64,000 nucleotides of DNA from a virus. Taxonomy: Duplodnaviria > Caudoviricetes. The first letter of the stretch is position 1. Every line of letters starts with the position of its first letter. Shown piece by piece: positions 8,048 through 58,331 of the stretch. The notes beneath the pieces were generated by a model, which was not told the DNA's origin, did no database searches, and saw only the letters and a program-made list of their open reading frames with translations. The stretch is taken from positions 649-64,648 of IMG/VR virus record IMGVR_UViG_3300044448_004493. One strand, given 5' to 3'. The translations under genes were made by a program, and so were the position numbers.

Positions 8048-8056
8048 ATATTTATA
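8048..8056 (+). promoter_or_regulatory. putative late promoter ATATTTATA
   Basis: Recurrent motif, 10 nt before ATG 8067. Confidence 0.65.
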
Positions 8057-27446: not shown

Positions 27447-27872
27447 ATGTGGTATTACTTAAACAATCAAATTAATGAAATCGTTGACCTCCCTGAAGGA
27501 GCATTCGGTTTTATTTATCAAACAACCCACACTCCAACAGGAAAAAAATATATTGGAAAAAAATCTTTAATTTATAATTTAAAGAAAAAATTGGGTAAAA
27601 AAGAAAAAGCACTTTGGGAAGGAAAAGGTCGTCCTCCTGTATATAAACAAGTACAAAAAGAAAGCGATTGGAAAACTTACTATGGTTCACACAGTTTTAT
27701 AAAAGAAGCAAATAAAGAAGACTTAGAAAGAAAAATCCTACAAGTGGCTTTTAACAAAAAAGAACTTACATATTTAGAATGTAAGTATCAATTTATGTTA
27801 GAAGTTTTAGAAGATAAAAAATACCTTAATGACAATATATTAGGTAAATTTTACGATAGGGATTTTAAATGA
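27447..27872 (+). CDS. stand-alone GIY-YIG-family nuclease
   Basis: GFIYQTTHTPTGKKYIGKK, followed by YYGS, a Glu helix and YLNDNI. Confidence 0.7.
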   Translation: MWYYLNNQINEIVDLPEGAFGFIYQTTHTPTGKKYIGKKSLIYNLKKKLGKKEKALWEGKGRPPVYKQVQKESDWKTYYGSHSFIKEANKEDLERKILQVAFNKKELTYLECKYQFMLEVLEDKKYLNDNILGKFYDRDFK

Positions 27873-28823: not shown

Positions 28824-31502
28824 ATGTCAAAAATCGCACTCTTACCTGGGGGATTCAAACCCCCACATGCAGGTCATTATAATATGGCTAAGTGGTTAGC
28901 ATCTAATACAGATGCAGACACTGTAGTTATAAAAGTAGGTGCTAAAGAAAGAGATGGTATAACAAGAGAAATGTCTCTTAGATTATGGAATTTATATAGA
29001 ACCACAGATAAAGACCCATTAGCTAAAAAACTTACAATACTACCATCAGAATCTCCTTCACCAGTAAGAGATGTATATGATTTTGTTGAAAAAGAAGCAC
29101 CTGAAAATTCTACTATTTACTTAGGAATGGGAGAAAAAGACATTAATGATAAACGTTTTTCTAATATAGGTAAATTTGCTGAACCAAGAGGGATTACATT
29201 TAAAACATCTTTAGTACCCCCACAAGCAGGTGGTGTATCAGGTACTGAAATGAGAGGTTTTATTAAAGATAATAATAAAGAATCGTTTCAAAAATATCTA
29301 CCAGACCATATTGATAAAGATAAAGCTTGGGATTTAGTTTCATCTATAGAAGAAGATTTTTATGATCCAAGAAATAAATACTATGATTTTGCTAAAAGTA
29401 GTGAGTATAAAGCGGGGTATAGAGGAAAAAAAGATATACCTAGAAAAGGAGACCAAATACATAATAGACAAACAGCACCTGTTAGTTGGGAAGAAGGATT
29501 AACAACACATGAAAAAATCCATCAACTTTATGAATTAGGAGGTACTATGACACGTCAAGAAATGGCTAAACATAATAAAAATTTAAGACGTTTAAAAAAA
29601 GACCTTAAAAGATTAGATAAACAAAATAAATATTATGAAGTACCTAAATATTTAAAAGGCACCTTAACAAGAAAATTATACGAAAATCATGGTACAAGCA
29701 CAGCAACAATAAATGGCCATTTTATACCTTTGGAAATAATGGATACCCCTGAATTACAGATGCAAGGAATGATAGGTAGAGATTCATTAAAGGGGGGTAT
29801 GGTTTTTCCTTATAATAATATATCTCAAAGAGATTTTCATATGCAAAATTGTAAAATCCCTTTAGATATAATTTTTATAGTTAATAATAAAATAAATAAA
29901 ATAGAACATAACGCTCCTCCTTGTAAAGGGGGCTGGTGTCCTAAATATTCAGGAAAAGCAGACAATGTTTTAGAATTACCAGGGGGTTATTGTAAAAAAC
30001 ATAATATTAATATAGGAGATAATATAGGGTTAAATTTAAATAAAATACCTAAACAATTAAATGAATTAGATAAAGAAGATATAAAATCAATAGATAATTT
30101 TGCAGATAAACAATTAGATCCTGTGGATGTAGATTTAACTTCTAAACATTTTTTTGATAGATTAAATGATCCTCGTAATGATAAAAAAATTTCAAATGCT
30201 GAATTAATTGGATTTTTTAAACGTTTAGCCAAAAAGAAAAAAGAATTATTTGATTTTTTATCAAAGTATAAAGAAGTAGTAGCATCTGATAATAGAACAG
30301 ATATTAATATACCTTTTTTAAAACAAGTAGATAAAATAATAGCTAAAACAATAATGAGAAAAAAAGATTTTCAAACCACAAATCCACAATTATCTTTAGA
30401 AACAAGATTATTTTCAAAAAATTGGTGGTTAAATATTCTAACAGAAGGGGGCGCAGCGGGACATATGGCTCATCCTTTTAACTTACCTAATGTTAATTCA
30501 GGTAAAGATTTAAAAGATATATTTGAAAAATCAGCAAATTCACTCCAAACAAATCCAGGAGCAGTAAAAATAGATGGAGTAAATAGTTCTATTCGTTTAG
30601 TTGATTTAGATGGTAAAAAGCAATTTGTAATGGATAGAGGTTCTAAAAAACCTTTAGATATAAAAGGTATAACAAAAGATGATTTATTAAATAGATTTGG
30701 TGATGGACATGGAATGGTAAAAGTAGGAGGAGAAGTATTAGATATGTTTAATGAAGCATTACCTTCACTTGAAAATGATCTTAAAAAATTAGGTGCTTGG
30801 GAAAATCCAAATATTTTATTTAATATGGAATATGTTAGTGGTAAAACCAATGTACAAGAATATGGTTCAAATTTTATAGCAATTCATGGTTTAAATAAAA
30901 TAGAATCAAAAGAAGTACAAGGAGCAAGAAAAATGTTAACTAAAAGAGTATCTTCAGAAATATCTTATGATAAAAATGCTTTAGAATCATTACTTAAAAA
31001 TTTAGAACCAACAGCTAAAAAAAGAGGATATGAAATTTATGGATCTGTACCCACAAAAATGAAAAAGAAACCTAATTTCAATTCAGCATTATCTAAAAGA
31101 TATACAATAGAAGCAGGTGAAAATACAGAAACAAAATCATTAGGGGAATGGTTGAATATATTAAATAACATTCCTGAAGAAAGTTTTATATTTATGAACG
31201 TTAATGGTACTAGAAAAAAAGTTGGAGCTGTTTCTAAACAAGTTTATCTTGCAATTCTCCAAGGAGAAAATATAGATGATTTATTTGAAACATCTGAAGA
31301 TAGACAAAAAGCAGTAGAAGGATTTACAACTTACTTAGCTACTGAAAAATTAGGAGATGAAGTACTTAAAGTATTAGATTCACCTATGGGCTCAGTAGAA
31401 AACCATGAAGGAGTAGTAATTAGGGATAAAAGCATAGCTAGTGTTCCTTTTAAAATAACTGGAAAATTTATATTAGGTGGATTAGCTACTGGATTTAGAT
31501 AA
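28824..31502 (+). CDS. multidomain protein: HxGH nucleotidyltransferase + DUF192 + RNase-like domain + ligase-like nucleotidyltransferase
   Basis: PGGFKPPHAGH..VSGTEMR (28824-29354); QGMIGR..GMVFPY..FHMQNCKIPLDIIFI..VLELPGG (29685-30030); HFFDRLNDPRN (30066-30395); KIDG/EGVVI/FKITG (30447-31502). Confidence 0.7.
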   Translation: MSKIALLPGGFKPPHAGHYNMAKWLASNTDADTVVIKVGAKERDGITREMSLRLWNLYRTTDKDPLAKKLTILPSESPSPVRDVYDFVEKEAPENSTIYLGMGEKDINDKRFSNIGKFAEPRGITFKTSLVPPQAGGVSGTEMRGFIKDNNKESFQKYLPDHIDKDKAWDLVSSIEEDFYDPRNKYYDFAKSSEYKAGYRGKKDIPRKGDQIHNRQTAPVSWEEGLTTHEKIHQLYELGGTMTRQEMAKHNKNLRRLKKDLKRLDKQNKYYEVPKYLKGTLTRKLYENHGTSTATINGHFIPLEIMDTPELQMQGMIGRDSLKGGMVFPYNNISQRDFHMQNCKIPLDIIFIVNNKINKIEHNAPPCKGGWCPKYSGKADNVLELPGGYCKKHNINIGDNIGLNLNKIPKQLNELDKEDIKSIDNFADKQLDPVDVDLTSKHFFDRLNDPRNDKKISNAELIGFFKRLAKKKKELFDFLSKYKEVVASDNRTDINIPFLKQVDKIIAKTIMRKKDFQTTNPQLSLETRLFSKNWWLNILTEGGAAGHMAHPFNLPNVNSGKDLKDIFEKSANSLQTNPGAVKIDGVNSSIRLVDLDGKKQFVMDRGSKKPLDIKGITKDDLLNRFGDGHGMVKVGGEVLDMFNEALPSLENDLKKLGAWENPNILFNMEYVSGKTNVQEYGSNFIAIHGLNKIESKEVQGARKMLTKRVSSEISYDKNALESLLKNLEPTAKKRGYEIYGSVPTKMKKKPNFNSALSKRYTIEAGENTETKSLGEWLNILNNIPEESFIFMNVNGTRKKVGAVSKQVYLAILQGENIDDLFETSEDRQKAVEGFTTYLATEKLGDEVLKVLDSPMGSVENHEGVVIRDKSIASVPFKITGKFILGGLATGFR

Positions 31503-31510
31503 AAATTATT

Positions 31511-33139
31511 ATGAAGAAAAAAGATTTATATAAAATAGTCAAAAAAGAATTAAAAGAACAACTTCGAGGAAGGGACAATGAAATAGAACCTTTAGATAAT
31601 GAACCTATGGATTTTGATGATCTTGTGCCTGATGACTCAACACCACCACCAGATCCAGGAGGAACTGATTATGGCCCACTACTCGAATATTATTGTACTG
31701 CTGATTCCACAGCTAAATATGCTGGTACACTTGATATAGGTGATAAATTTTGTTGTGATGGAGACAGTAACAATGGTGCTCAGTCAAGTACTGGTGGGTT
31801 TGCTGGAGGAGTAGATAGTACTATAGCAGGAAGTCCATCTGGAGATTATTGTTTAGGTGTACATCAACAACAAAGTCTTACTCCCCCACCTCTTAATGAT
31901 TGTTCAGCTGGAACTTTAGCTGCTGATTGGGCTGCTTGGGTAGGTTTTAGCCAATGGCCTTATGGGGGAAATATAGTTACTGATACAGGAGTAGCAACAG
32001 CTAATACTCCTAATACAGCTTTTGGTCCTTATAGTTCTCTGCAGGCTGCAAAAATGAATTGTTGTCCTGATAAAAATAACCTAGCTACCAATCCAAATGG
32101 CACTTGTAGAGGATGTAGAGTTTCGGGTAATGATAACTATGGTTCTGGTTATACTATGTCAGCAAATAATTCTGATTGTATAACTTATGATTGTGATTTA
32201 TCAGCAAATCCACCATATGTTGCAGTAACTGGGCTTGGAGGAACACATGCTAATGCAGCAGCAGCAGCAGCAGCTTGTATAAGTACTACAGTTTACGGAT
32301 GTACTACAGTAGGAGACTGTAACGAAGATACGAATGCTACTGCAAATGATCCACTTTATTGTGTGGGAGTGCCTAATGGAGCATGTGAATCATGTAGCAC
32401 AGATCCATCTGCGGTAGATCCTACCTATAACCCAAGTGGTAATATAGTAGTAAGTAGTGTAGGGGCAACTGGAGGATGTAGTTGTGATGTACCAGGATCA
32501 GGTAATTATGATCCATCAAATTTAGGATGTCCTGATCAAAATAATGATCCAGATCCAGGTAATACTGGTTGTTGTACACCACCAAGCACCACAGCATGTA
32601 TGCAAATTAAAGCAGTAGAATGTAATTCTCATCAAATACCAGGACAACAATCAGTCCATATTACTCCTTGTGCAACTATTGATGGTCAAACACCCCAACA
32701 AGGAGATTCATATATGACAGGTAATGGAGTACCATATTTGATATATCTCCCTGATGGATCGGAATTTGTAAATCACTCAGGATATATAGATTATGAAGTA
32801 ATAGAAGTAAATATGCCAGATGCACCCGCAGGTCAGCCTGCACCAACACCAGTTAATCTTCAGGGGGGAATGTGTCCTAGACCTACAACTACAACACCAA
32901 AAGACCCAAGAACAAAACATCAGACTGATGGTCAATTTGCTAATCCATTTAGCCCTCAATTTGATACCGAACTTACACATTATCATGATAATCCGGCATT
33001 TAAAGATGAGGAAGAAATTATATCTGAAATTCAAACAAGTAAAAAATTAAGAGCTTTATTTGAAGAAGAATTTTCACTTAATGAAGAAAAAAAGTTAAGA
33101 AACTTAATTAAAAAGGTGTTAAAAAAGAAAATAAAATGA
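31511..33139 (+). CDS. Cys/Gly/Pro-rich protein with amphipathic tags at both ends, candidate head cargo
   Basis: MKKKDLYKIVKKELKE start, LNEEKKLRNLIKKVLKKKIK end, and many Cys between. Confidence 0.6.
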   Translation: MKKKDLYKIVKKELKEQLRGRDNEIEPLDNEPMDFDDLVPDDSTPPPDPGGTDYGPLLEYYCTADSTAKYAGTLDIGDKFCCDGDSNNGAQSSTGGFAGGVDSTIAGSPSGDYCLGVHQQQSLTPPPLNDCSAGTLAADWAAWVGFSQWPYGGNIVTDTGVATANTPNTAFGPYSSLQAAKMNCCPDKNNLATNPNGTCRGCRVSGNDNYGSGYTMSANNSDCITYDCDLSANPPYVAVTGLGGTHANAAAAAAACISTTVYGCTTVGDCNEDTNATANDPLYCVGVPNGACESCSTDPSAVDPTYNPSGNIVVSSVGATGGCSCDVPGSGNYDPSNLGCPDQNNDPDPGNTGCCTPPSTTACMQIKAVECNSHQIPGQQSVHITPCATIDGQTPQQGDSYMTGNGVPYLIYLPDGSEFVNHSGYIDYEVIEVNMPDAPAGQPAPTPVNLQGGMCPRPTTTTPKDPRTKHQTDGQFANPFSPQFDTELTHYHDNPAFKDEEEIISEIQTSKKLRALFEEEFSLNEEKKLRNLIKKVLKKKIK

Positions 33140-47254: not shown

Positions 47255-48097
47255 ATGAAAGTAAAACATTCTAAGTACAAAAATACTGGAATTTTATTTG
47301 AACTCCTTACTAGACAGCTAACGTCTGATACTATTGCGGGGAACGATCCAAAGTCCTTAAGTTTTTTAAAAAAACACTTTAATTCTAAAACAGAATTATT
47401 AAAAGAGTATAAAATATATCATACTCTTTCTACTAAAAAATATAAACAAAATAGTCAAGCTATAATGTTAATTGAAGAATTAATTAAAGCTCATGGAAGA
47501 TTAAATAAAACTCAATTAAGAAGAGAAAAATATAATTTAATAAAAGAAATTAAAGAAAATTATGATATAAATAATTTTTTTAAATCTAAAATCACAAATT
47601 ATAAAATAATGGCTTCTGTTTTTAATTTATTAGAAAACAAAAAAGCTACACCTTTATCAATAGTTAATTCTAAAACAACTCTTTTAGAACATATTATGGA
47701 AAAACCTCTAACTAAGATAAATAATGGTCTTGCTTCTATTATAGAAAAACAGGATAAAGATACTAGATTACTTACTTATAAAGTCTTACTTGAAAAATTT
47801 AATAACAAATATAGTGGTTTAGAAGATAATCAAAAAACATTATTAAAAGAATATGTTAATAGTGTTAGTAATAGTCCTGCTCTTAAATCTTATATCAATC
47901 AAGAAATCAAAATAGTTAAAAGAGATATCTTAAAATATTCTAAAAAAATTGAAGATAAAGCAGTAGCTGTTAAATTAAATGAAGTAAAAGGAATGATTAA
48001 ACCATTATGTAAAAAATCAAATGTACATGATGATAATGTTATTAATTTACTTAACTATTATGAATTAATAAATGAATTAAAAACACTCCATGGCTAA
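47255..48097 (+). CDS. hypothetical head-module protein
   Basis: Between portal and protease; helical and Lys-rich. Confidence 0.55.
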   Translation: MKVKHSKYKNTGILFELLTRQLTSDTIAGNDPKSLSFLKKHFNSKTELLKEYKIYHTLSTKKYKQNSQAIMLIEELIKAHGRLNKTQLRREKYNLIKEIKENYDINNFFKSKITNYKIMASVFNLLENKKATPLSIVNSKTTLLEHIMEKPLTKINNGLASIIEKQDKDTRLLTYKVLLEKFNNKYSGLEDNQKTLLKEYVNSVSNSPALKSYINQEIKIVKRDILKYSKKIEDKAVAVKLNEVKGMIKPLCKKSNVHDDNVINLLNYYELINELKTLHG

Positions 48098-48704: not shown

Positions 48705-49322
48705 ATGCTTTTAACAGAATATAGACAATTTAAAGTAGATAAACAAATAGCGGAACAAGCTGTTAGAGAAAATAAACCTTTAATAGTTCAAGGTGTACTT
48801 CAAAGAGCTGAAGCTAAAAACCAAAATGGTAGAGTTTATCCTAAGGAAATTCTTGCGAGAGAAGTCCAAAATTATATAGATGGTCCTATTAAAGATAATA
48901 GAGCTATGGGAGAATTAGACCACCCAGAAAGTTCTATAATTAATTTACAAAATGTATCCCATACAGTTAAAAAATGTTGGTGGGATGGTGATGATGTGAT
49001 AGGTAAAGTAGAAATATTAAATACACCAGCAGGAAATATATTAAAAGCATTATTTGCAGCAGGAATAACAGTTGGTATTAGTTCTAGGGGAATGGGTTCA
49101 GTAGAAGAAAATATATCAGAAGGTACAGTAGAAGTACAAGATGATTTTGAATTATTATGTTGGGATTTTGTTTCAACTCCCTCAACACATGGTGCTTTTA
49201 TGAAACCATCAACTCCTGGTATTAATGAAAATAAAATAAAACAAATAGAATACAAATACACAAATATAAATAATATAATTAGAGATATAATTTGCGATAA
49301 TACAGGAGTATGTAAATGTTAA
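48705..49322 (+). CDS. gp21: prohead protease (T4 gp21-like)
   Basis: NQNGRVYP, GELDHPE, NVSH, GISSRGMGS and WDFVSTPSTHGA motifs. Confidence 0.95.
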   Translation: MLLTEYRQFKVDKQIAEQAVRENKPLIVQGVLQRAEAKNQNGRVYPKEILAREVQNYIDGPIKDNRAMGELDHPESSIINLQNVSHTVKKCWWDGDDVIGKVEILNTPAGNILKALFAAGITVGISSRGMGSVEENISEGTVEVQDDFELLCWDFVSTPSTHGAFMKPSTPGINENKIKQIEYKYTNINNIIRDIICDNTGVCKC

Positions 49323-51703: not shown

Positions 51704-53245
51704 ATGGCAAAAGACATTTTAAAAGAAGCTATCGCTGATGCTAAAGCTGTTCGTGAAGTTGCTCTTGCAAATGCAAAAGCAGCCCTAGAAGAAGCTTTTA
51801 CACCGAAACTTCAATCAATGCTATCTGCTAAATTATCTGAAGAATTAGAAGAAGACATGTATTACGATGAAGATGAAAATGATGATGTTGAAGAAGAATT
51901 AGATTTAAATTCAATGTTAGATGAAGACGAATTGGAATCAGACATCGAAGAAGACATGGATTATAATGAAAATGAAGATAATATGGATGATGGTATGGAT
52001 GAAGAAATCGATTTAGAAGAAATTCTTAACGAATTAGAAATAGAAGGCGATGAAGCTAACGAAGACGAAGAAGATCTAGAAGAATTAGCACGTCCAAACT
52101 ATAAAGCAGAATATACTGGAACAAACCACCATTATTCAGCTGATAAAGTAATGGAAAGTGAAGAATTTGATTTAGATGCTCTTCTAAAAGAAATCAATAA
52201 TTTAGACGAAACAAAACAACCTTTAAATGAAATATGGATAAAGATTGGGTGCTTCCTTATAGGATGGGGGTTAACTGCACTCTTTGATCATTTTGAATGG
52301 TTACCTGCAGGAGGAGGTGGAATGACAACCGGTCCTGGTACTGGTGGTGTAGGAGACGCTGATATGGCTGCTGCAGCACGAAAAATAGGATTAACGGTTC
52401 CACAAACAAACAGATTACTAGGATGGGCAGAAAAAAATCCACATAAAATAGAAATGTGTAATAGTGGTGGTTCCCTAACAATGAATGATGTATCAGAAAT
52501 AAGAGACATTCTTCCTATATTAGCCGCAAAAAGTGGACGAGCAGATATGGGTGGAGTAGATACAGGTTTAAGAGGACCTAAAGAACCAATGGCAATGATG
52601 GATATGATGGAAAACGCTGAACCTGTAAATGAAAGCATATTTGCTGCTTTGTCAGGATTAGTAGCGCTATTAGGTACAGCTGGTATTACAACAGCAATCG
52701 AAGTGGCATTAGAAGATCCAGAATTCGCAGAGAAACATCCTAAATTAAAAGGTGTTTTTGATTTACTTAAAAAAATAGGAAATTCTTCATTAGTTAAAGG
52801 TATTAAACAAGAAGATATAACTTATGATGAAGACGAAAGTGATGAGTCAGAAGAGCTTGAAGAAACTAAAAAAGCCCTTAAAGCAGTTAAATCTGAACTT
52901 AATGAAGTTAATCTTTTAAATTCTAAATTATTATATGTTAATAGGATTTTTAAATCTAACAATTTAGATGATGGTCAAAAACTTAGAGTTGTTGAAACAT
53001 TAGATAAAGCTGGAAGTATTAAAGAATCTAAATTAATATATGAAACAATTAAGGATACTTTTAATGTTGCTAATACAAAGAAAGCATCTGTTAGAAAAAA
53101 TCAAACAAGAACTATAAAAGAAAATTTTGGAATGGCTTCTAAAGCAGCTGGTATTTATAAAGCTCCTAAAAAAGAAATCATTTCAGAGTCTAATAATATG
53201 GTATCTCGTTTCCAAAAATTAGCAAACATACAGATAAACGAATAA
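51704..53245 (+). CDS. gp22: prohead scaffolding/core protein (gp22-like) with inserted cargo modules
   Basis: Immediately before the capsid gene; acidic and coiled-coil; ends SRFQKLANIQINE. Confidence 0.8.
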   Translation: MAKDILKEAIADAKAVREVALANAKAALEEAFTPKLQSMLSAKLSEELEEDMYYDEDENDDVEEELDLNSMLDEDELESDIEEDMDYNENEDNMDDGMDEEIDLEEILNELEIEGDEANEDEEDLEELARPNYKAEYTGTNHHYSADKVMESEEFDLDALLKEINNLDETKQPLNEIWIKIGCFLIGWGLTALFDHFEWLPAGGGGMTTGPGTGGVGDADMAAAARKIGLTVPQTNRLLGWAEKNPHKIEMCNSGGSLTMNDVSEIRDILPILAAKSGRADMGGVDTGLRGPKEPMAMMDMMENAEPVNESIFAALSGLVALLGTAGITTAIEVALEDPEFAEKHPKLKGVFDLLKKIGNSSLVKGIKQEDITYDEDESDESEELEETKKALKAVKSELNEVNLLNSKLLYVNRIFKSNNLDDGQKLRVVETLDKAGSIKESKLIYETIKDTFNVANTKKASVRKNQTRTIKENFGMASKAAGIYKAPKKEIISESNNMVSRFQKLANIQINE

Positions 53246-53268: not shown

Positions 53269-54984
53269 ATGAACACAGTAAATTCATTATTAGAAGGATC
53301 AAGTCCTTACCAAGTTCTTCAAAACCAAGCTGCCAAATTATCTGGTAAGTGGGAAAAATCAGGACTTTTAGAGGGAATTGAATCTTCTACAGACGCAAAC
53401 AACATGGCTATTCTTTTGGAAAACCAAGCAAAGCAATTAGTAAACGAAGCTAACACTACGGGTACTGGTGCTAATATTTCAACTGGTAATTCAGAAGCAT
53501 GGGCAGGTGTAGCTCTTCCATTAGTACGAAGAGTATTTGGTGAAATCGTTGCTAAAGATTTAGTATCGGTTCAACCAATGAACTTACCTGCTGGATTGAT
53601 CTTTTATTTAGACTTCCAGTATGGTTCAACAGGTGATGGTTTCACATCAGGCGATAGCTTATATGGAGCTTCATCAGACCTTAAGAGAACTGAACTTCCT
53701 GCTACAGCAAATAGAAAAGCTCTATATGGTGCAGGTACTTTCGGTTACTCATTTAACCAAACAGGATCTGCTACAGTTACTTTAGCTTCAGGTGCTGCAG
53801 CTCACGACACTCCATCTGAATTATTAAATGGTATCTTAAATATGGATACACAATTCTCAGCATCTAAAGCTGGTGAATTTAATGATGGTAATGCAGTAGT
53901 AAGAGTTGTAACAGTAAATACTTCATCATTAGTTGATTTTGATGTAGATGCAATTAGAGCTATTTCTTTAGGAACTGGATCTTTAGGTGTTGATCTTTTC
54001 CCACAATTTACAAGAGTAAATGCTGGTAAACTTGAATTAGTAATTTCAGCAGCTGCAAATATTGATATGGAAGGTATGAAAGTAACTTACCCAATCACTC
54101 CTGACAACTTAGATGACAGAGGTGACTTTGAGGAAGGTAAAAACGCATCTTCAGCTGGTGGTGGAACTGATGGTCTTAACTCAACACTTGAAATCCCTGA
54201 AATCAATGTTCAATTAAGAAGTGATACAGTTGCTGCTAAAACACGTAAATTGAAAGCACAATGGACTCCTGAGTTCGCTCAAGACTTGAATGCTTACCAT
54301 TCAATTGACGCTGAAGCAGAATTAACTTCTATCTTAAGTGAATATATTTCAATGGAAATTGATTTAGAAATCTTAGACATGTTAATCAGAAACGCTGATA
54401 CAGTTGAAGGTTGGAGTGCTAAAGTAGGTGAAGATGTTTCAGTTACTAGCCCATCTAACAACTCAGTAGGTGGTTCTAACCCAGCAGTTACTTTCTCTAC
54501 AGAAACTAACAACTTAGGTGTATATTACACTAAGATGTCTTGGTTCCAAACTTTAGGTATTAAATTACAAAAAGTTAGTAACTTAATTCATCAGAAAACT
54601 TTAAGAGGTGGTGCTAATTTCTTAGTAGTTTCTCCAAGAGTTTCTACAATCTTAGAATCAATCCCAGGATTTGCTGCTGACTCAGCTGGAGACAGTGACA
54701 AATACAACATGGGTGTTCAAAAGATTGGTGCAATTAACAACAGATACACAGTTTACAAAAATCCTTATATGACTGAAAATATCATTTTAATGGGTTACAA
54801 AGGATCTCAATTCCTTGAAACTGGTGCTGTCTTTGCTCCATATATTCCATTAATCATGACTCCATTAGTGTACGATCCAACGTCATTCACACCAAGAAAA
54901 GGTATTATGACTAGATACGCTAAGAAAATGGTTCGTCCTGATTTCTATGGTAAAGTAGTAATTAGAGACTTAGACCAACTGTAA
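53269..54984 (+). CDS. gp23: major capsid protein (T4 gp23-like)
   Basis: VSVQPMNLPAGLIFYL, TRKLKAQWTPEFAQDLNAYH and PYIPL motifs; strong C-ending codon bias; predicted cleavage at LVNE60|A. Confidence 0.96.
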   Translation: MNTVNSLLEGSSPYQVLQNQAAKLSGKWEKSGLLEGIESSTDANNMAILLENQAKQLVNEANTTGTGANISTGNSEAWAGVALPLVRRVFGEIVAKDLVSVQPMNLPAGLIFYLDFQYGSTGDGFTSGDSLYGASSDLKRTELPATANRKALYGAGTFGYSFNQTGSATVTLASGAAAHDTPSELLNGILNMDTQFSASKAGEFNDGNAVVRVVTVNTSSLVDFDVDAIRAISLGTGSLGVDLFPQFTRVNAGKLELVISAAANIDMEGMKVTYPITPDNLDDRGDFEEGKNASSAGGGTDGLNSTLEIPEINVQLRSDTVAAKTRKLKAQWTPEFAQDLNAYHSIDAEAELTSILSEYISMEIDLEILDMLIRNADTVEGWSAKVGEDVSVTSPSNNSVGGSNPAVTFSTETNNLGVYYTKMSWFQTLGIKLQKVSNLIHQKTLRGGANFLVVSPRVSTILESIPGFAADSAGDSDKYNMGVQKIGAINNRYTVYKNPYMTENIILMGYKGSQFLETGAVFAPYIPLIMTPLVYDPTSFTPRKGIMTRYAKKMVRPDFYGKVVIRDLDQL

Positions 54985-56433: not shown

Positions 56434-57990
56434 ATGGCAAATATTCCTATATGGCCCGGCTCATCATCATTTGCAGTAGGTGATACTGCTTTTGGGTTTT
56501 ATGATACTGATTCTGATTTTTCAAGTGACGCTGATAATATAGCAACTTGGTGTGCCCAAAGATTAGGTTATCCCTTAGTTGATATAGAACTTCAAGCTGT
56601 TAATTTTTTTACATGTTTTGAAGAAGCAGTAACAGAATATGGTCATCAAGTATATACTTTCCAAATAGTTAACAATTTATTTAGGATTAAGGGAAAAGCC
56701 ACAGGATCAGCTTTAAATCAAATATATTTAGATGATTATTATGGATCTGATTATGGAGGGGGTGCAGGAAGTCAAGGATCAGGAACTAGTTATAATTTAA
56801 CAGATACTAGATTATATTCAGCTTCTTTATCTGTAAAAAGAAATCAACAAAGATATAATTTATTATCACAAGCCCCTGGATTTTCTACAGCAGATTTAAC
56901 ATTTACAGGAATCCCATCTCCATCTCAATCTTTAACTATAATAGCTACAAACGGAAGTTCACACACATATACAGCTCATGCATCATCAAGTGCTTATCAT
57001 GTATCTTCTAGTTTAAATCAATTTGAAACTGGATCTTCAGCAGCATCTGCAGCCACTAATTTGGCTGATCTTATCAATTTAAATACAGATAAACATTTTA
57101 AGGCAACAGTTTCTGCTTCTGTAATAACACTTACTCAAAAAATAGAAGGAACAGCAGGAGATACAACTATAACATCAAATTTTTCTAATTTTACTACATC
57201 TAGTTTTGATGGGGGTGCTTCAGGATTAAAATTTGAAAGTTCAGGATCTGCTATACAAGCAGGAGATAAACAAATAAGAATAAAAAAGATATATCATTAT
57301 GCTCCTTCTGCCATAAATAGATATTTTGACCCATATGCAGGTACAGGTACAGGAATTCAATCTTTAATGCAAACTTTTGGTTTTGGTAATTACTCACCTG
57401 GTGTAAATTTTATGTTAATGCCTATATATTTTGATGCTTTAAAATTACAAGCAATTGAATTTAATGATCAAATAAGAAAATCATCATATCATTTTGAATT
57501 AAATGCAGGTAAATATTTAAAATTATTTCCTATTCCTACTAGAGATTATACTCTTTGGTTTGAATATACTATGTCTGATACATCTTCAGACCCATCAACA
57601 GAAGAAGATGCTCAAGGAAATGAAGTATCTAAACCTAAAAATTTAGTTACAGATATTTCAAATGCCCCATATGAAAGACCTACATATGCTTATATAAATG
57701 AACCAGGAAGACAATGGATTAGGAAATATTCTTTAGCTTTAGCTAAAGAAATGTTAGGAAGTGTAAGAGGAAAATATCAAGTAGTACCTATTCCTGGATC
57801 TGAAACAACTTTAGATTATACAAGATTATTAGATGAAGCTAGAGCTGAAAAAGAACAGTTAATTACTCAATTAAGAGAAGATTTAGAAGCAACAACTACT
57901 CTTAAACAATTAGAAAGATCAACAGCAGAAAGTGATCAAAAACAACAGTCATATACTATAGATAATCCTTACCAAATTTATATACATTAA
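56434..57990 (+). CDS. gp13: neck protein (T4 gp13-like) with an inserted beta domain
   Basis: QRLGYPLVDIEL N-terminal motif and C-terminal WIRKYSLALAKEMLG..RLLDEARAEKEQL. Confidence 0.8.
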   Translation: MANIPIWPGSSSFAVGDTAFGFYDTDSDFSSDADNIATWCAQRLGYPLVDIELQAVNFFTCFEEAVTEYGHQVYTFQIVNNLFRIKGKATGSALNQIYLDDYYGSDYGGGAGSQGSGTSYNLTDTRLYSASLSVKRNQQRYNLLSQAPGFSTADLTFTGIPSPSQSLTIIATNGSSHTYTAHASSSAYHVSSSLNQFETGSSAASAATNLADLINLNTDKHFKATVSASVITLTQKIEGTAGDTTITSNFSNFTTSSFDGGASGLKFESSGSAIQAGDKQIRIKKIYHYAPSAINRYFDPYAGTGTGIQSLMQTFGFGNYSPGVNFMLMPIYFDALKLQAIEFNDQIRKSSYHFELNAGKYLKLFPIPTRDYTLWFEYTMSDTSSDPSTEEDAQGNEVSKPKNLVTDISNAPYERPTYAYINEPGRQWIRKYSLALAKEMLGSVRGKYQVVPIPGSETTLDYTRLLDEARAEKEQLITQLREDLEATTTLKQLERSTAESDQKQQSYTIDNPYQIYIH

Positions 57991-58331
57991 TGATTAAATT
58001 AAAAGACATATTATTAGAAATCTTAAATAACTATAGTATAGAAGTTGATTTATTTGTAGATAATATGGCTTCTCATTATGAAATCACTAATGAAATTAGA
58101 GCTTTAAAAGGAATAACAATTGTAACTATTATTACTCCTGAAGATTATATTCAATCTACATCAGGAGATGAATATATTAGATTAAGAATAAAATTTGTAA
58201 CAAGGGGAGATGCTAAAAATATGTTACAACAATTTTTAGATTCTGCTTTAGCTAAAAACGATACAGATAAAATAAGAATACCTGGAATAAAATCTATGAA
58301 ATTTAGAAAAGAAACCTTAAAAAGATTATAA
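57990..58331 (+). CDS. small tagged hypothetical protein
   Basis: MIKLKDILLE leader. Confidence 0.55.
   Translation: MIKLKDILLEILNNYSIEVDLFVDNMASHYEITNEIRALKGITIVTIITPEDYIQSTSGDEYIRLRIKFVTRGDAKNMLQQFLDSALAKNDTDKIRIPGIKSMKFRKETLKRL

Follow-up and report, generated by a model that had tools for sequence, protein, structure and literature searches.

The 892-residue open reading frame (ORF) described here lies in a 64,000-nucleotide stretch of phage DNA (positions 649 to 64,648 of IMG/VR record IMGVR_UViG_3300044448_004493; the whole stretch is hereafter called the window, and coordinates refer to it). Comparison with its relatives identifies the ORF as one version of an array in which cassettes are combined in varying ways and flanked by two constant enzymes, an N-terminal HxGH nucleotidyltransferase (NTase) and a C-terminal domain with a ligase fold. 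This main feature had been overlooked in a preliminary description of the window, which read the ORF as four enzymes joined by protease-type sites. We propose, with a probability of roughly 0.55, that the ORF encodes a polyprotein made late by a T4-like myovirus as capsid cargo. Its units, each ending in [L/I/V]-x-E, would be packaged and then cut apart by the head-maturation protease.

A cassette array between two constant enzymes

The homologues of the ORF (Table 1) were counted at E≤0.001 among the 8,000 candidates scored in a word-indexed search. More than 1,400 metagenomic homologues together with confident folds rule out an artefactual reading frame. Throughout these relatives the NTase and the ligase-like domain are constant, whereas the modules between them come and go. 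Simple signature-motif scoring of 183 proteins gave about 60 architectures with a nearly fixed cassette order, and the window's own arrangement occurs once among them. The internal cassettes comprise DUF192, a RegB-like domain, SET (Pfam), an unnamed small block and several basic blocks; a DxDxT cassette in some relatives was read as HAD-like by eye, without Pfam confirmation. In the minimal form of 609 residues (P0103) only the NTase, linker b, the spacer and the ligase-like domain are left. The ligase-like domain falls into 403 clusters at 50% identity and is 75–87% identical among relatives of the ORF.

The constant pair is found fused as in the ORF, fused in reverse order (P0431), and as overlapping adjacent genes with leaders of their own (L073). 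Its recurrence in three arrangements argues for a two-enzyme functional unit, so that NTase and ligase-like domain would act as a pair. The minimal fusion is also present in two uncultured phages with genomes above 460 kb.

At the locus with separate genes (L073:5971-7835) a free-standing ligase-like gene, beginning MITFKQFLLE↓GGVAGHM (the arrow marks a joint, here and below), overlaps the start of an HxGH NTase gene that opens with MRFDDLVNE↓ and continues to FPGRFQPFHTGH. A minimal member of 639 residues is encoded by the cultured cyanophage Microcystis phage Mel-JY01 (PP395634.1, 11243-13162; L091:4296-6212; WWT39297.1). It has the leader MGKLINILLSE, an NTase with the variant PMGIHH, the joint IIAE↓GGLGGHM and the ligase-like domain. 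The gene, annotated only as 'cytidylyltransferase like protein', precedes that for the large terminase by 2.6 kb; a literature search for Mel-JY01 gave nothing useful.

Layout of the ORF

The motifs HAGH (residues 15-18), HFFDRLNDPRN (442-452), KIDG (582-585), EGVV (862-865) and FKITGK (876-881), and joints ending at IEE (29354), LYE (29684), LNE (30065) and LTE (30446), were all recovered where the preliminary description had placed them, to within one base. Including one further joint, the five junctions (IEE177, LYE237, LYE287, LNE414 and LTE541) are all of the form [LI]xE. All four of the proposed folds hold; 'four enzymes' is too much in that DUF192 has no known activity. The four domains had also been placed correctly, and what the four-part layout missed is a conserved basic linker of 110 residues (178-287) and a leader-like spacer (531-541).

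Structures were predicted with AlphaFold for the RegB-like and the ligase-like domain and compared with 48,161 solved chains by the structural search VIA. In the Foldseek comparison recommended earlier, the PDB matches were weak for both models, and coherent lists came only from the exhaustive VIA search. Sequence searches of the PDB with single domains and profiles gave no significant match. The Atlas model of the whole protein has a pTM of 0.39.

Joints, leaders and the head protease

The record also encodes terminase, portal, tail sheath, a Gp23-type major capsid protein (PF07068, E 1.6e-79) and a Peptidase_S77 protease. This gene set identifies it, by sequence, as that of a T4-like myovirus, here of marine origin. 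The capsid protein calibrates what the protease should cut. Its propeptide contains four [LIV]xE sites (SLLE, GLLE, ILLE and LVNE), the last of which, LVNE↓A, stands just before the conserved mature stretch ..LPLVRRV..VQPMNLP. We take the cut site of T4 gp23, FLTE↓AEIGG, to be its counterpart at the same place, and the specificity of the protease looks conserved. In T4, replacement of the Glu by Asp blocks processing.

The clearest joint in the family is the one before the ligase-like domain. Among 103 representatives of the 50%-identity clusters with a recognisable start GGAAGHM, 82 have sequence upstream of it, and in 78 of these (95%) [LIVMF]xE directly precedes the GG. The remaining 21 begin M↓GG, which places the preceding Glu outside the fold. 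Breakpoints between relatives point in the same direction: in 84 relatives, the ends of BLAST segments coincide with the E of [LIVM]xE in 7.2% of cases (1.4% at random positions) and lie within five residues of the motif in 32% (14% at random), counts that rest on non-independent pairs.

A free N-terminal leader of 4-34 residues is present in 42 of the 103 ligase-like representatives. The commonest of these are close to the capsid-targeting sequence (CTS) of T4, MKTYQEFIAE, of which two exact copies were verified in the T4 genome: MMTFKQFLLE↓ (L071-73), MITFKQYLLNE↓, MNTFEEYFLLE↓ and MKTLQSYI...VE↓. Free-standing relatives of the RegB-like domain have the same kind of leader, namely MMKTFTEFILE↓ (P0297), MNMLNFKSWSALNE↓ and MIKLKDILFE↓ (P0311), and these stop exactly at the domain start. 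MMKTFTEFILE has 7 of 10 residues in common with the T4 sequence. Within the CTS, targeting depends on residues 4 and 7, processing on residues 8 and 10 (PMC9026906); all four positions are retained in the leaders of the relatives.

CTS-like leaders occur only on free-standing relatives, possibly also as the internal spacer at residues 531-541 of the ORF, which lines up by eye with free-standing leaders of the type MLNFKQYF..ILE. This resemblance suggests that the polyprotein may consist of leader-plus-domain units fused head to tail. A loading signal common to the scaffold protein and the ORF was not found, and when the linker modules and the spacer before the ligase-like domain were compared with the proteins of the window, the scaffold among them, no significant similarity emerged.

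No HExxH motif is present in 119 relatives or in the ORF itself. Since this peptidase type is missing from the relatives, any cutting would need a protease in trans. Intein-like or self-cleaving joints were considered and rejected, because domains of either kind are absent. The idea that the joints are protease sites and the products virion cargo thus gains from the comparison of protease gene, capsid site, breakpoints, leaders and upstream box, and loses from the want of an N-terminal tag.

Leaders of this type also open other genes of the window. An ORF of 113 residues (57990-58331) begins with MIKLKDILLE, the leader type of P0311, and is a candidate small head cargo; leaders ending in [LIVM]xE open the ORFs at 33136, 34423, 36133, 38531, 11934 and 48090.

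Table 1. Features of the 892-residue ORF and associated elements of the window (residue numbers are those of the respective protein).
Feature	Position	Strand	Basis or remark
Whole ORF (P0001), 892 residues, uninterrupted	28824..31502	+	1,479 homologues at E≤0.001
Promoter-like box ATATTTATAA	28799..28808	+	16 nucleotides upstream of the ATG of the ORF
Module N, HxGH (HIGH-type) nucleotidyltransferase, residues 1-177, ends IEE	28824..29354	+	PF01467 and motifs
Linker module a, residues 178-237, ends LYE	29355..29534	+	block DFYDP...KKDIPR common to many relatives
Linker module b, residues 238-287, basic (15 Lys+Arg in 50 residues), ends LYE	29535..29684	+	kept in minimal relatives
Module D, DUF192, residues 288-414, ends LNE	29685..30065	+	PF02643
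Module R, RegB/RelE-fold (BECR) putative endoribonuclease, residues 415-530	30066..30413	+	structure match to T4 RegB
Leader-like spacer TRLFSKNWWLNILTE, residues 531-541, ends LTE	30414..30446	+	conserved F[ST]KxWW..I[IL]xE in fused forms
Module C, putative covalent nucleotidyltransferase of ligase/capping fold, residues 542-892, starts GGAAGHMAHPF	30447..31499	+	fold and motifs
gp21-type prohead protease, putative partner acting in trans	48705..49322	+	Peptidase_S77 PF03420, E 4.6e-32
Major capsid propeptide, residues 1-60, ends LVNE↓ANTTG	53269..53448	+	calibration of protease specificity

The C-terminal ligase-like domain

The AlphaFold model of this domain has a pLDDT of 93.8. The first 19 places of its VIA list are taken entirely by DNA ligases, RNA ligases and capping enzymes (Z 7.5-5.6 over 163-190 residues), including Pmar-Lig (Z 7.5) and T4 Rnl1 (9do4, Z 7.4, 178 residues). 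The Foldseek result is weak, with Rnl1 on top at E 0.028. The nucleotidyltransferase motifs are found at K582 (motif I), E669 (III), E862-G863 (IV) and K877 (V). Among 26 diverse relatives K41-x-D43-G44 (I), N126, E321-G322 (IV) and K336 (V) in domain numbering are invariant, and E128 of motif III (NMEYV) is nearly so. Side by side with Rnl1, the motifs read KIDG and KEDG, NMEYV and NFEFV, EGVV and EGYV, FKIT and FKIK. Motif V (FK877ITG) keeps its first Lys without exception, but where Rnl1 has the second (FK240IK242) there is almost always Thr. Hence the ligase-type call made from KxDG, EGVV and FK is confirmed by fold and by motifs I, III and IV, with the second Lys of motif V replaced.

In other respects the domain stands apart. 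Neither the OB domain of DNA ligases and capping enzymes nor motif VI follows motif V, and the protein stops 15 residues later. Motifs IIIa and IV are separated by some 100 or more inserted residues, as estimated from the model. A comparison with T4 Rnl1 by hhalign was not significant (E 0.19), and its sole aligned segment sets NMEYV on NFE159FV. No Pfam family matches the domain at E≤1, and PF09511 (RNA_lig_T4_1) gives no match above its cut-off. PF09414 is weakly present in 2 of the 26 relatives (best E 0.0085) and nowhere in the genome. In neighbouring Atlas clusters DUF6267 is assigned to 16-59% of the members, which is a lead only; the corresponding model PF19782 is silent across the genome, as are its controls, and a literature search on DUF6267 gave nothing useful.

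The N-terminal nucleotidyltransferase

H15, G17 and H18 of the HAGH motif are invariant among the relatives, and S139, M143 and R144 of the second signature (VSGTEMR, core SGTEMR) are nearly so. PF01467 (CTP_transf_like) is borderline at 21.4 bits against a cut-off of 21, with 26.8 bits in the relative P0114, and the Atlas neighbours are cytidylyltransferase-like phage clusters. The call of an HxGH nucleotidyltransferase is therefore borne out by both conserved signatures together with a borderline family score. A subfamily is not indicated: models of nicotinamide mononucleotide (NMN) adenylyltransferase (NMNAT), nicotinate mononucleotide (NaMN) adenylyltransferase and phosphopantetheine adenylyltransferase (TIGR00482, PRK01153, TIGR01510) gave no full-length match and only about 13-25 bits against cut-offs of 103-341, over stretches confined to the first ~60 residues, mostly 1-44. 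A profile search of the PDB reached E 0.05-0.2 over the first 25-36 residues only. By its sequence the domain belongs to the HIGH-motif nucleotidyltransferase superfamily and to no named subfamily.

A more distantly related long protein of Flavobacterium phage immuto, gp088 (L004:2132-4852, 907 residues), is annotated 'NMN adenylyltransferase NadR' and is actually a multi-domain chain. Its HxGH NTase is 33% identical to that of the window, it contains two HExxH motifs, and a Pol-beta-type NTase motif at its N-terminus was read from the sequence by eye. The gene is two genes downstream of the primase of that phage.

The exchangeable modules and the linker

The HFFDRLNDPRN domain was modelled with an alignment of its relatives (AlphaFold, pLDDT 88.6); its free-standing relatives have 110-135 residues. 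The top VIA match is T4 RegB (2hx6, Z 8.1, root-mean-square deviation 2.8, 101 of 127 residues aligned), followed by RelE (2kc8, Z 6.5) and by ParE, YoeB, HigB and CdiA-CT (Z 4.2-5.6). In BFVD it matches a 602-residue protein of phage phiM12 (E 9e-10) and an annotated RegB 'site-specific RNA endonuclease' (E 1.2e-3, TM 0.67); it also matches phrog_23027. Profile searches found no similarity to T4 RegB at the sequence level, so that the RegB/RelE likeness noticed earlier is right at the level of the fold. H28, D31, R32, K94, R98 and K99 (domain numbering) are invariant, a set of His, Asp, Arg and Lys that is compatible with a metal-independent RNase.

The DUF192 call is firm: PF02643 matches residues 302-401 of the ORF with 85.2 bits (cut-off 27, E 3.6e-24) over profile positions 2-94 of 96. 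A literature search on the function of DUF192 gave nothing useful. The cassette contains an insert H..(C/A)PPC...C.xYSG (29850-29960, about residues 343-380) with three Cys in most relatives and two here (HNAPPCKGGWCPKYSG). The insert may represent a small knuckle that binds metal, of which the copy of the window has lost a part.

Residues 178-287 form a conserved linker of two modules which, judged from their sequences, are non-enzymatic. Module a gave no family match. The strongly basic module b is retained even in minimal relatives.

Setting of the gene and its upstream box

The contig of 64,648 bases has a G+C content of about 30%, and essentially all of its genes are on the + strand. The ORF is situated within a long structural run on this strand, with tail-fibre-like genes on the upstream side and genes for terminase, portal, protease, scaffold (51704-53245), capsid and sheath downstream. 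Directly before it are only a homing-endonuclease-like ORF and then the primase. The former (141 residues, 27447-27872) lies between a tail-fibre-like gene with a LamG domain and the primase, the start of which it overlaps; it matches the homing-endonuclease families phrog_7363 and phrog_314, and also phrog_447, which is mislabelled 'NAD synthetase'.

CheckV rates the record as 82% complete. This value is unreliable, as are those of the clade in general, since two close relatives rated 100%, the records G006 (73.5 kb) and G007 (55 kb) with the loci L016 and L017, have no match to capsid or protease genes. The true genome size is probably well over 100 kb.

The preliminary description had also assigned the ORF a late-motif promoter of its own. 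There is indeed a recurring box, ATATTTATAA, upstream of the start codon. On the coding strand it reads TATTTATA, a sequence that occurs 13 times on the + strand of the window, and 9 of the 13 copies are located 11-35 nucleotides upstream of gene starts, in zones that make up 3.5% of the window. These starts include those of the portal (45370), of the gene at 47255 and of the tail sheath (56434). The box is not the late promoter of T4, TATAAATA, which is absent from the coding strand upstream of the ORF and not enriched overall (20 found, 25.8 expected). Late action is read only from the association of the box with structural genes such as portal and sheath.

Written as (T)TTATATTTATAA(T), the nine copies upstream of gene starts are located on the + strand at 8049, 17840, 23101, 28800, 45347, 47220, 56402, 61881 and 62784, and several copies contain TATAAT. 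It is likely to be a promoter element of the phage.

Proposed course and alternative explanations

From the folds, motifs, cassette variation, joint positions, protease gene and leaders described above we infer the following course of loading, cutting and injection, including every substrate named in it. The 892-residue chain would be built into the prohead core, where the gp21-type protease would cut it into up to six pieces: the HxGH NTase, a pair of short linker peptides of which one is strongly basic, DUF192, the RegB-like endoribonuclease and the Rnl-type ligase-fold enzyme, which would thereby gain the new N-terminus GGAAGHM. On leaving the capsid the pieces would accompany the DNA into the next host cell and be active there ahead of any phage gene expression. 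The HxGH and ligase-fold enzymes would be the constant functional pair, and the units between them exchangeable accessory effectors. RNA-directed chemistry appears most likely, with the RegB-like unit cutting mRNA and the ligase-fold unit forming a Lys582-NMP intermediate and joining or modifying RNA ends.

Several observations weigh against this course, and most of them favour a different one, which we regard as conceivable but rather unlikely, namely that the chain stays uncut in the cytoplasm as a multi-domain enzyme acting on one substrate, with [LIV]xE a matter of linker composition or a leftover of fusion. The ORF has no N-terminal CTS; it starts with MSKIALLPGGFKPPH, which is already the NTase core (MSKIALLPGGF), and we know of no case in T4 where targeting has been demonstrated for anything other than N-terminal tags. 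Moreover, the ligase-like domain itself contains four sites of the strict form [LI]xE; relaxing the motif to [LIV]xE adds a fifth there and one in DUF192, so the motif alone does not predict cutting. The joint Glu is missing in some relatives, a few of which have Cys or Asp in its place before GGAAGHM, and the 21 ligase-like representatives that begin at M↓GG are leaderless. The immediate upstream neighbour of the ORF is the primase. To these points have to be added the non-independence of the breakpoint pairs and the annotation in phiM12, where the RegB-like carrier is a 'hypothetical protein' and the gene two upstream a 'virion structural protein'. An uncut enzyme, however, leaves unaccounted for the near-identical T4-type leaders on free-standing relatives of two of the domains and the retention of [LIVMF]xE in 95% of the joints before the ligase-like domain. 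Cassettes are moreover swapped freely, unlike the parts of a fixed multi-step enzyme, and the gene stands among structural genes with the same upstream box.

The neighbouring primase would also suit a role of the C-terminal domain as the nick-sealing replicative DNA ligase of the phage, to which the other domains would be accessory. Neither the 64.6-kb record nor the 73.5-kb record G006 matches PF01068 or PF01653, and these smaller records without a canonical ligase leave that role some weight, as do the DNA ligases among the structural matches (for example Pmar-Lig) and the very strong conservation of the domain. The records are fragments, however, so that a missing ligase means little, and the complete 181.6-kb genome G004 and the 132-kb genome G009 carry a canonical PF01068 ligase in addition to the ligase-like domain. 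With the OB domain, motif VI and the second Lys of motif V all absent, and with free-standing forms that bear capsid-targeting-like leaders, the domain is unlikely to be a replicative DNA ligase. About as improbable, in our view, is the purpose first suggested for the packaged enzymes, an injected kit for restoring NAD or repairing tRNA against Sir2/TIR or tRNA-cutting defences. The best NCBIfam matches of the NTase are in fact NMN and NaMN adenylyltransferases, the NTase encoded by the neighbouring gene in L073 has GRFQPFHTGH, the form typical of NMNAT, motif V (FKI) and motif III (N-x-E-[YF]-V) resemble those of T4 Rnl1, and the DxDxT cassette of some relatives looks HAD-like by eye. The NMNAT-type models, however, cover only the first ~40 residues and score far below their cut-offs, and NMNAT alone could not rebuild NAD from the products of Sir2/TIR. 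A P-loop kinase motif, which would mark an end-healing kinase, is absent from 119 relatives, and a fused RNA-cutting RegB-like domain suits host takeover at least equally well. Beyond the fold itself, nothing found supports NAD restoration or RNA repair, and anti-defence functions are speculative.

A bolder form of the polyprotein reading, which we put forward tentatively and with considerable doubt, is that of a capsid-delivered combinatorial effector array in marine T4-like phages. Its core, the NTase together with a new Rnl-like ligase, might carry out a new nucleotide transfer, directed at RNA of the host or the phage, within seconds of the start of infection. The cassettes (RegB-like, DUF192, SET and the HAD-like motif block) might be reshuffled at the sites of the head protease as part of an arms race against the defences of the host, like the toxin tips of polymorphic toxin systems, and the internal F-x-K-x-W-W...L-x-E might be a new position-independent capsid-loading signal.

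Relation to known systems

The nearest known parallel to the proposed polyprotein is the set of T4 internal proteins IPI, IPII and IPIII with Alt. The two have in common a T4-type prohead protease, a gp23-type capsid, cutting after [L/I]-x-E, as proposed here, and a proposed delivery with the DNA; in addition, the leaders of about 10 residues on free-standing relatives of two modules keep CTS positions 4, 7, 8 and 10. T4 cargo, in contrast, consists of single small proteins, each tagged at its N-terminus, whereas here as many as six units would be linked into a single protein that carries its tag-like element in the interior and no tag at the N-terminus, and the presumed cargo consists of enzymes with swappable cassettes. 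Without an N-terminal tag the ORF is not classed as a plain member of the T4 cargo, and it also has no match above cut-off to the models of named RNA ligases, NMNAT or, with controls equally silent, DUF6267.

The motif cut by the phiKZ protease is S/A/G-x-E, unlike the one found here. In the giant phages phiKZ, 201phi2-1 and SPN3US, gp21-like proteases process many head proteins at short motifs, cutting behind a Glu, and such sites are redundant within the propeptides (PMC9026906). The inner-body and ejection proteins of giant phages differ from the ORF in being unrelated proteins, and it is they that have proteomic proof.

Polyvalent proteins combine many effector domains, among them RNases of the RelE/BECR fold, in mosaic architectures, and packaging has been predicted for them (Iyer et al. 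2017, PMC5512222). Like these, the ORF unites unrelated effector domains in one phage protein, is mosaic and is encoded among virion genes. It differs in having neither the zincin metallopeptidase that is frequent in the class, of which 119 relatives likewise show no HExxH motif, nor a fusion to MuF or portal; release of the pieces would rely on the head-maturation protease instead. The words HxGH, cytidylyltransferase and adenylyltransferase do not appear in the description of the class, and ligases appear only in another context (PMC5512222).

At the level of single domains, the ligase-like domain has in common with T4 Rnl1 and other Rnl-type RNA ligases the covalent nucleotidyltransferase fold, KxDG, N-x-E-[YF]-V, EG-[VY]-V, the start FKI and the absence of an OB domain. 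It is set apart from Rnl1 by FKITG as motif V, by its insertion of about 100 or more residues, by an element of its own, GGAAGHMxHPF, and by the constant pairing with an HxGH NTase. T4 RegB, the top structural match of the RegB-like domain, is likewise a phage protein, and conserved His, Arg and Lys are present in the RegB-like domain; RegB, however, is early and unpackaged, whereas the relatives of the window domain bear CTS-like leaders or are fused into long proteins.

Implications

If the proposed reading is correct, abundant marine T4-like phages inject sets of enzymes with their DNA, beyond small internal proteins, and such a set would be altered by the swapping of cassettes at protease sites. 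The internal-protein model of T4 would be extended to long enzyme polyproteins, and roles would be suggested for DUF192, for the DUF6267-related ligase-like family and for a packaged RegB-like RNase. The arrangement would also serve as a naturally evolved blueprint for packaging multiple foreign enzymes in capsids of the T4 type. With its minimal member of the family, the cultured Microcystis phage Mel-JY01 makes this reading directly testable.

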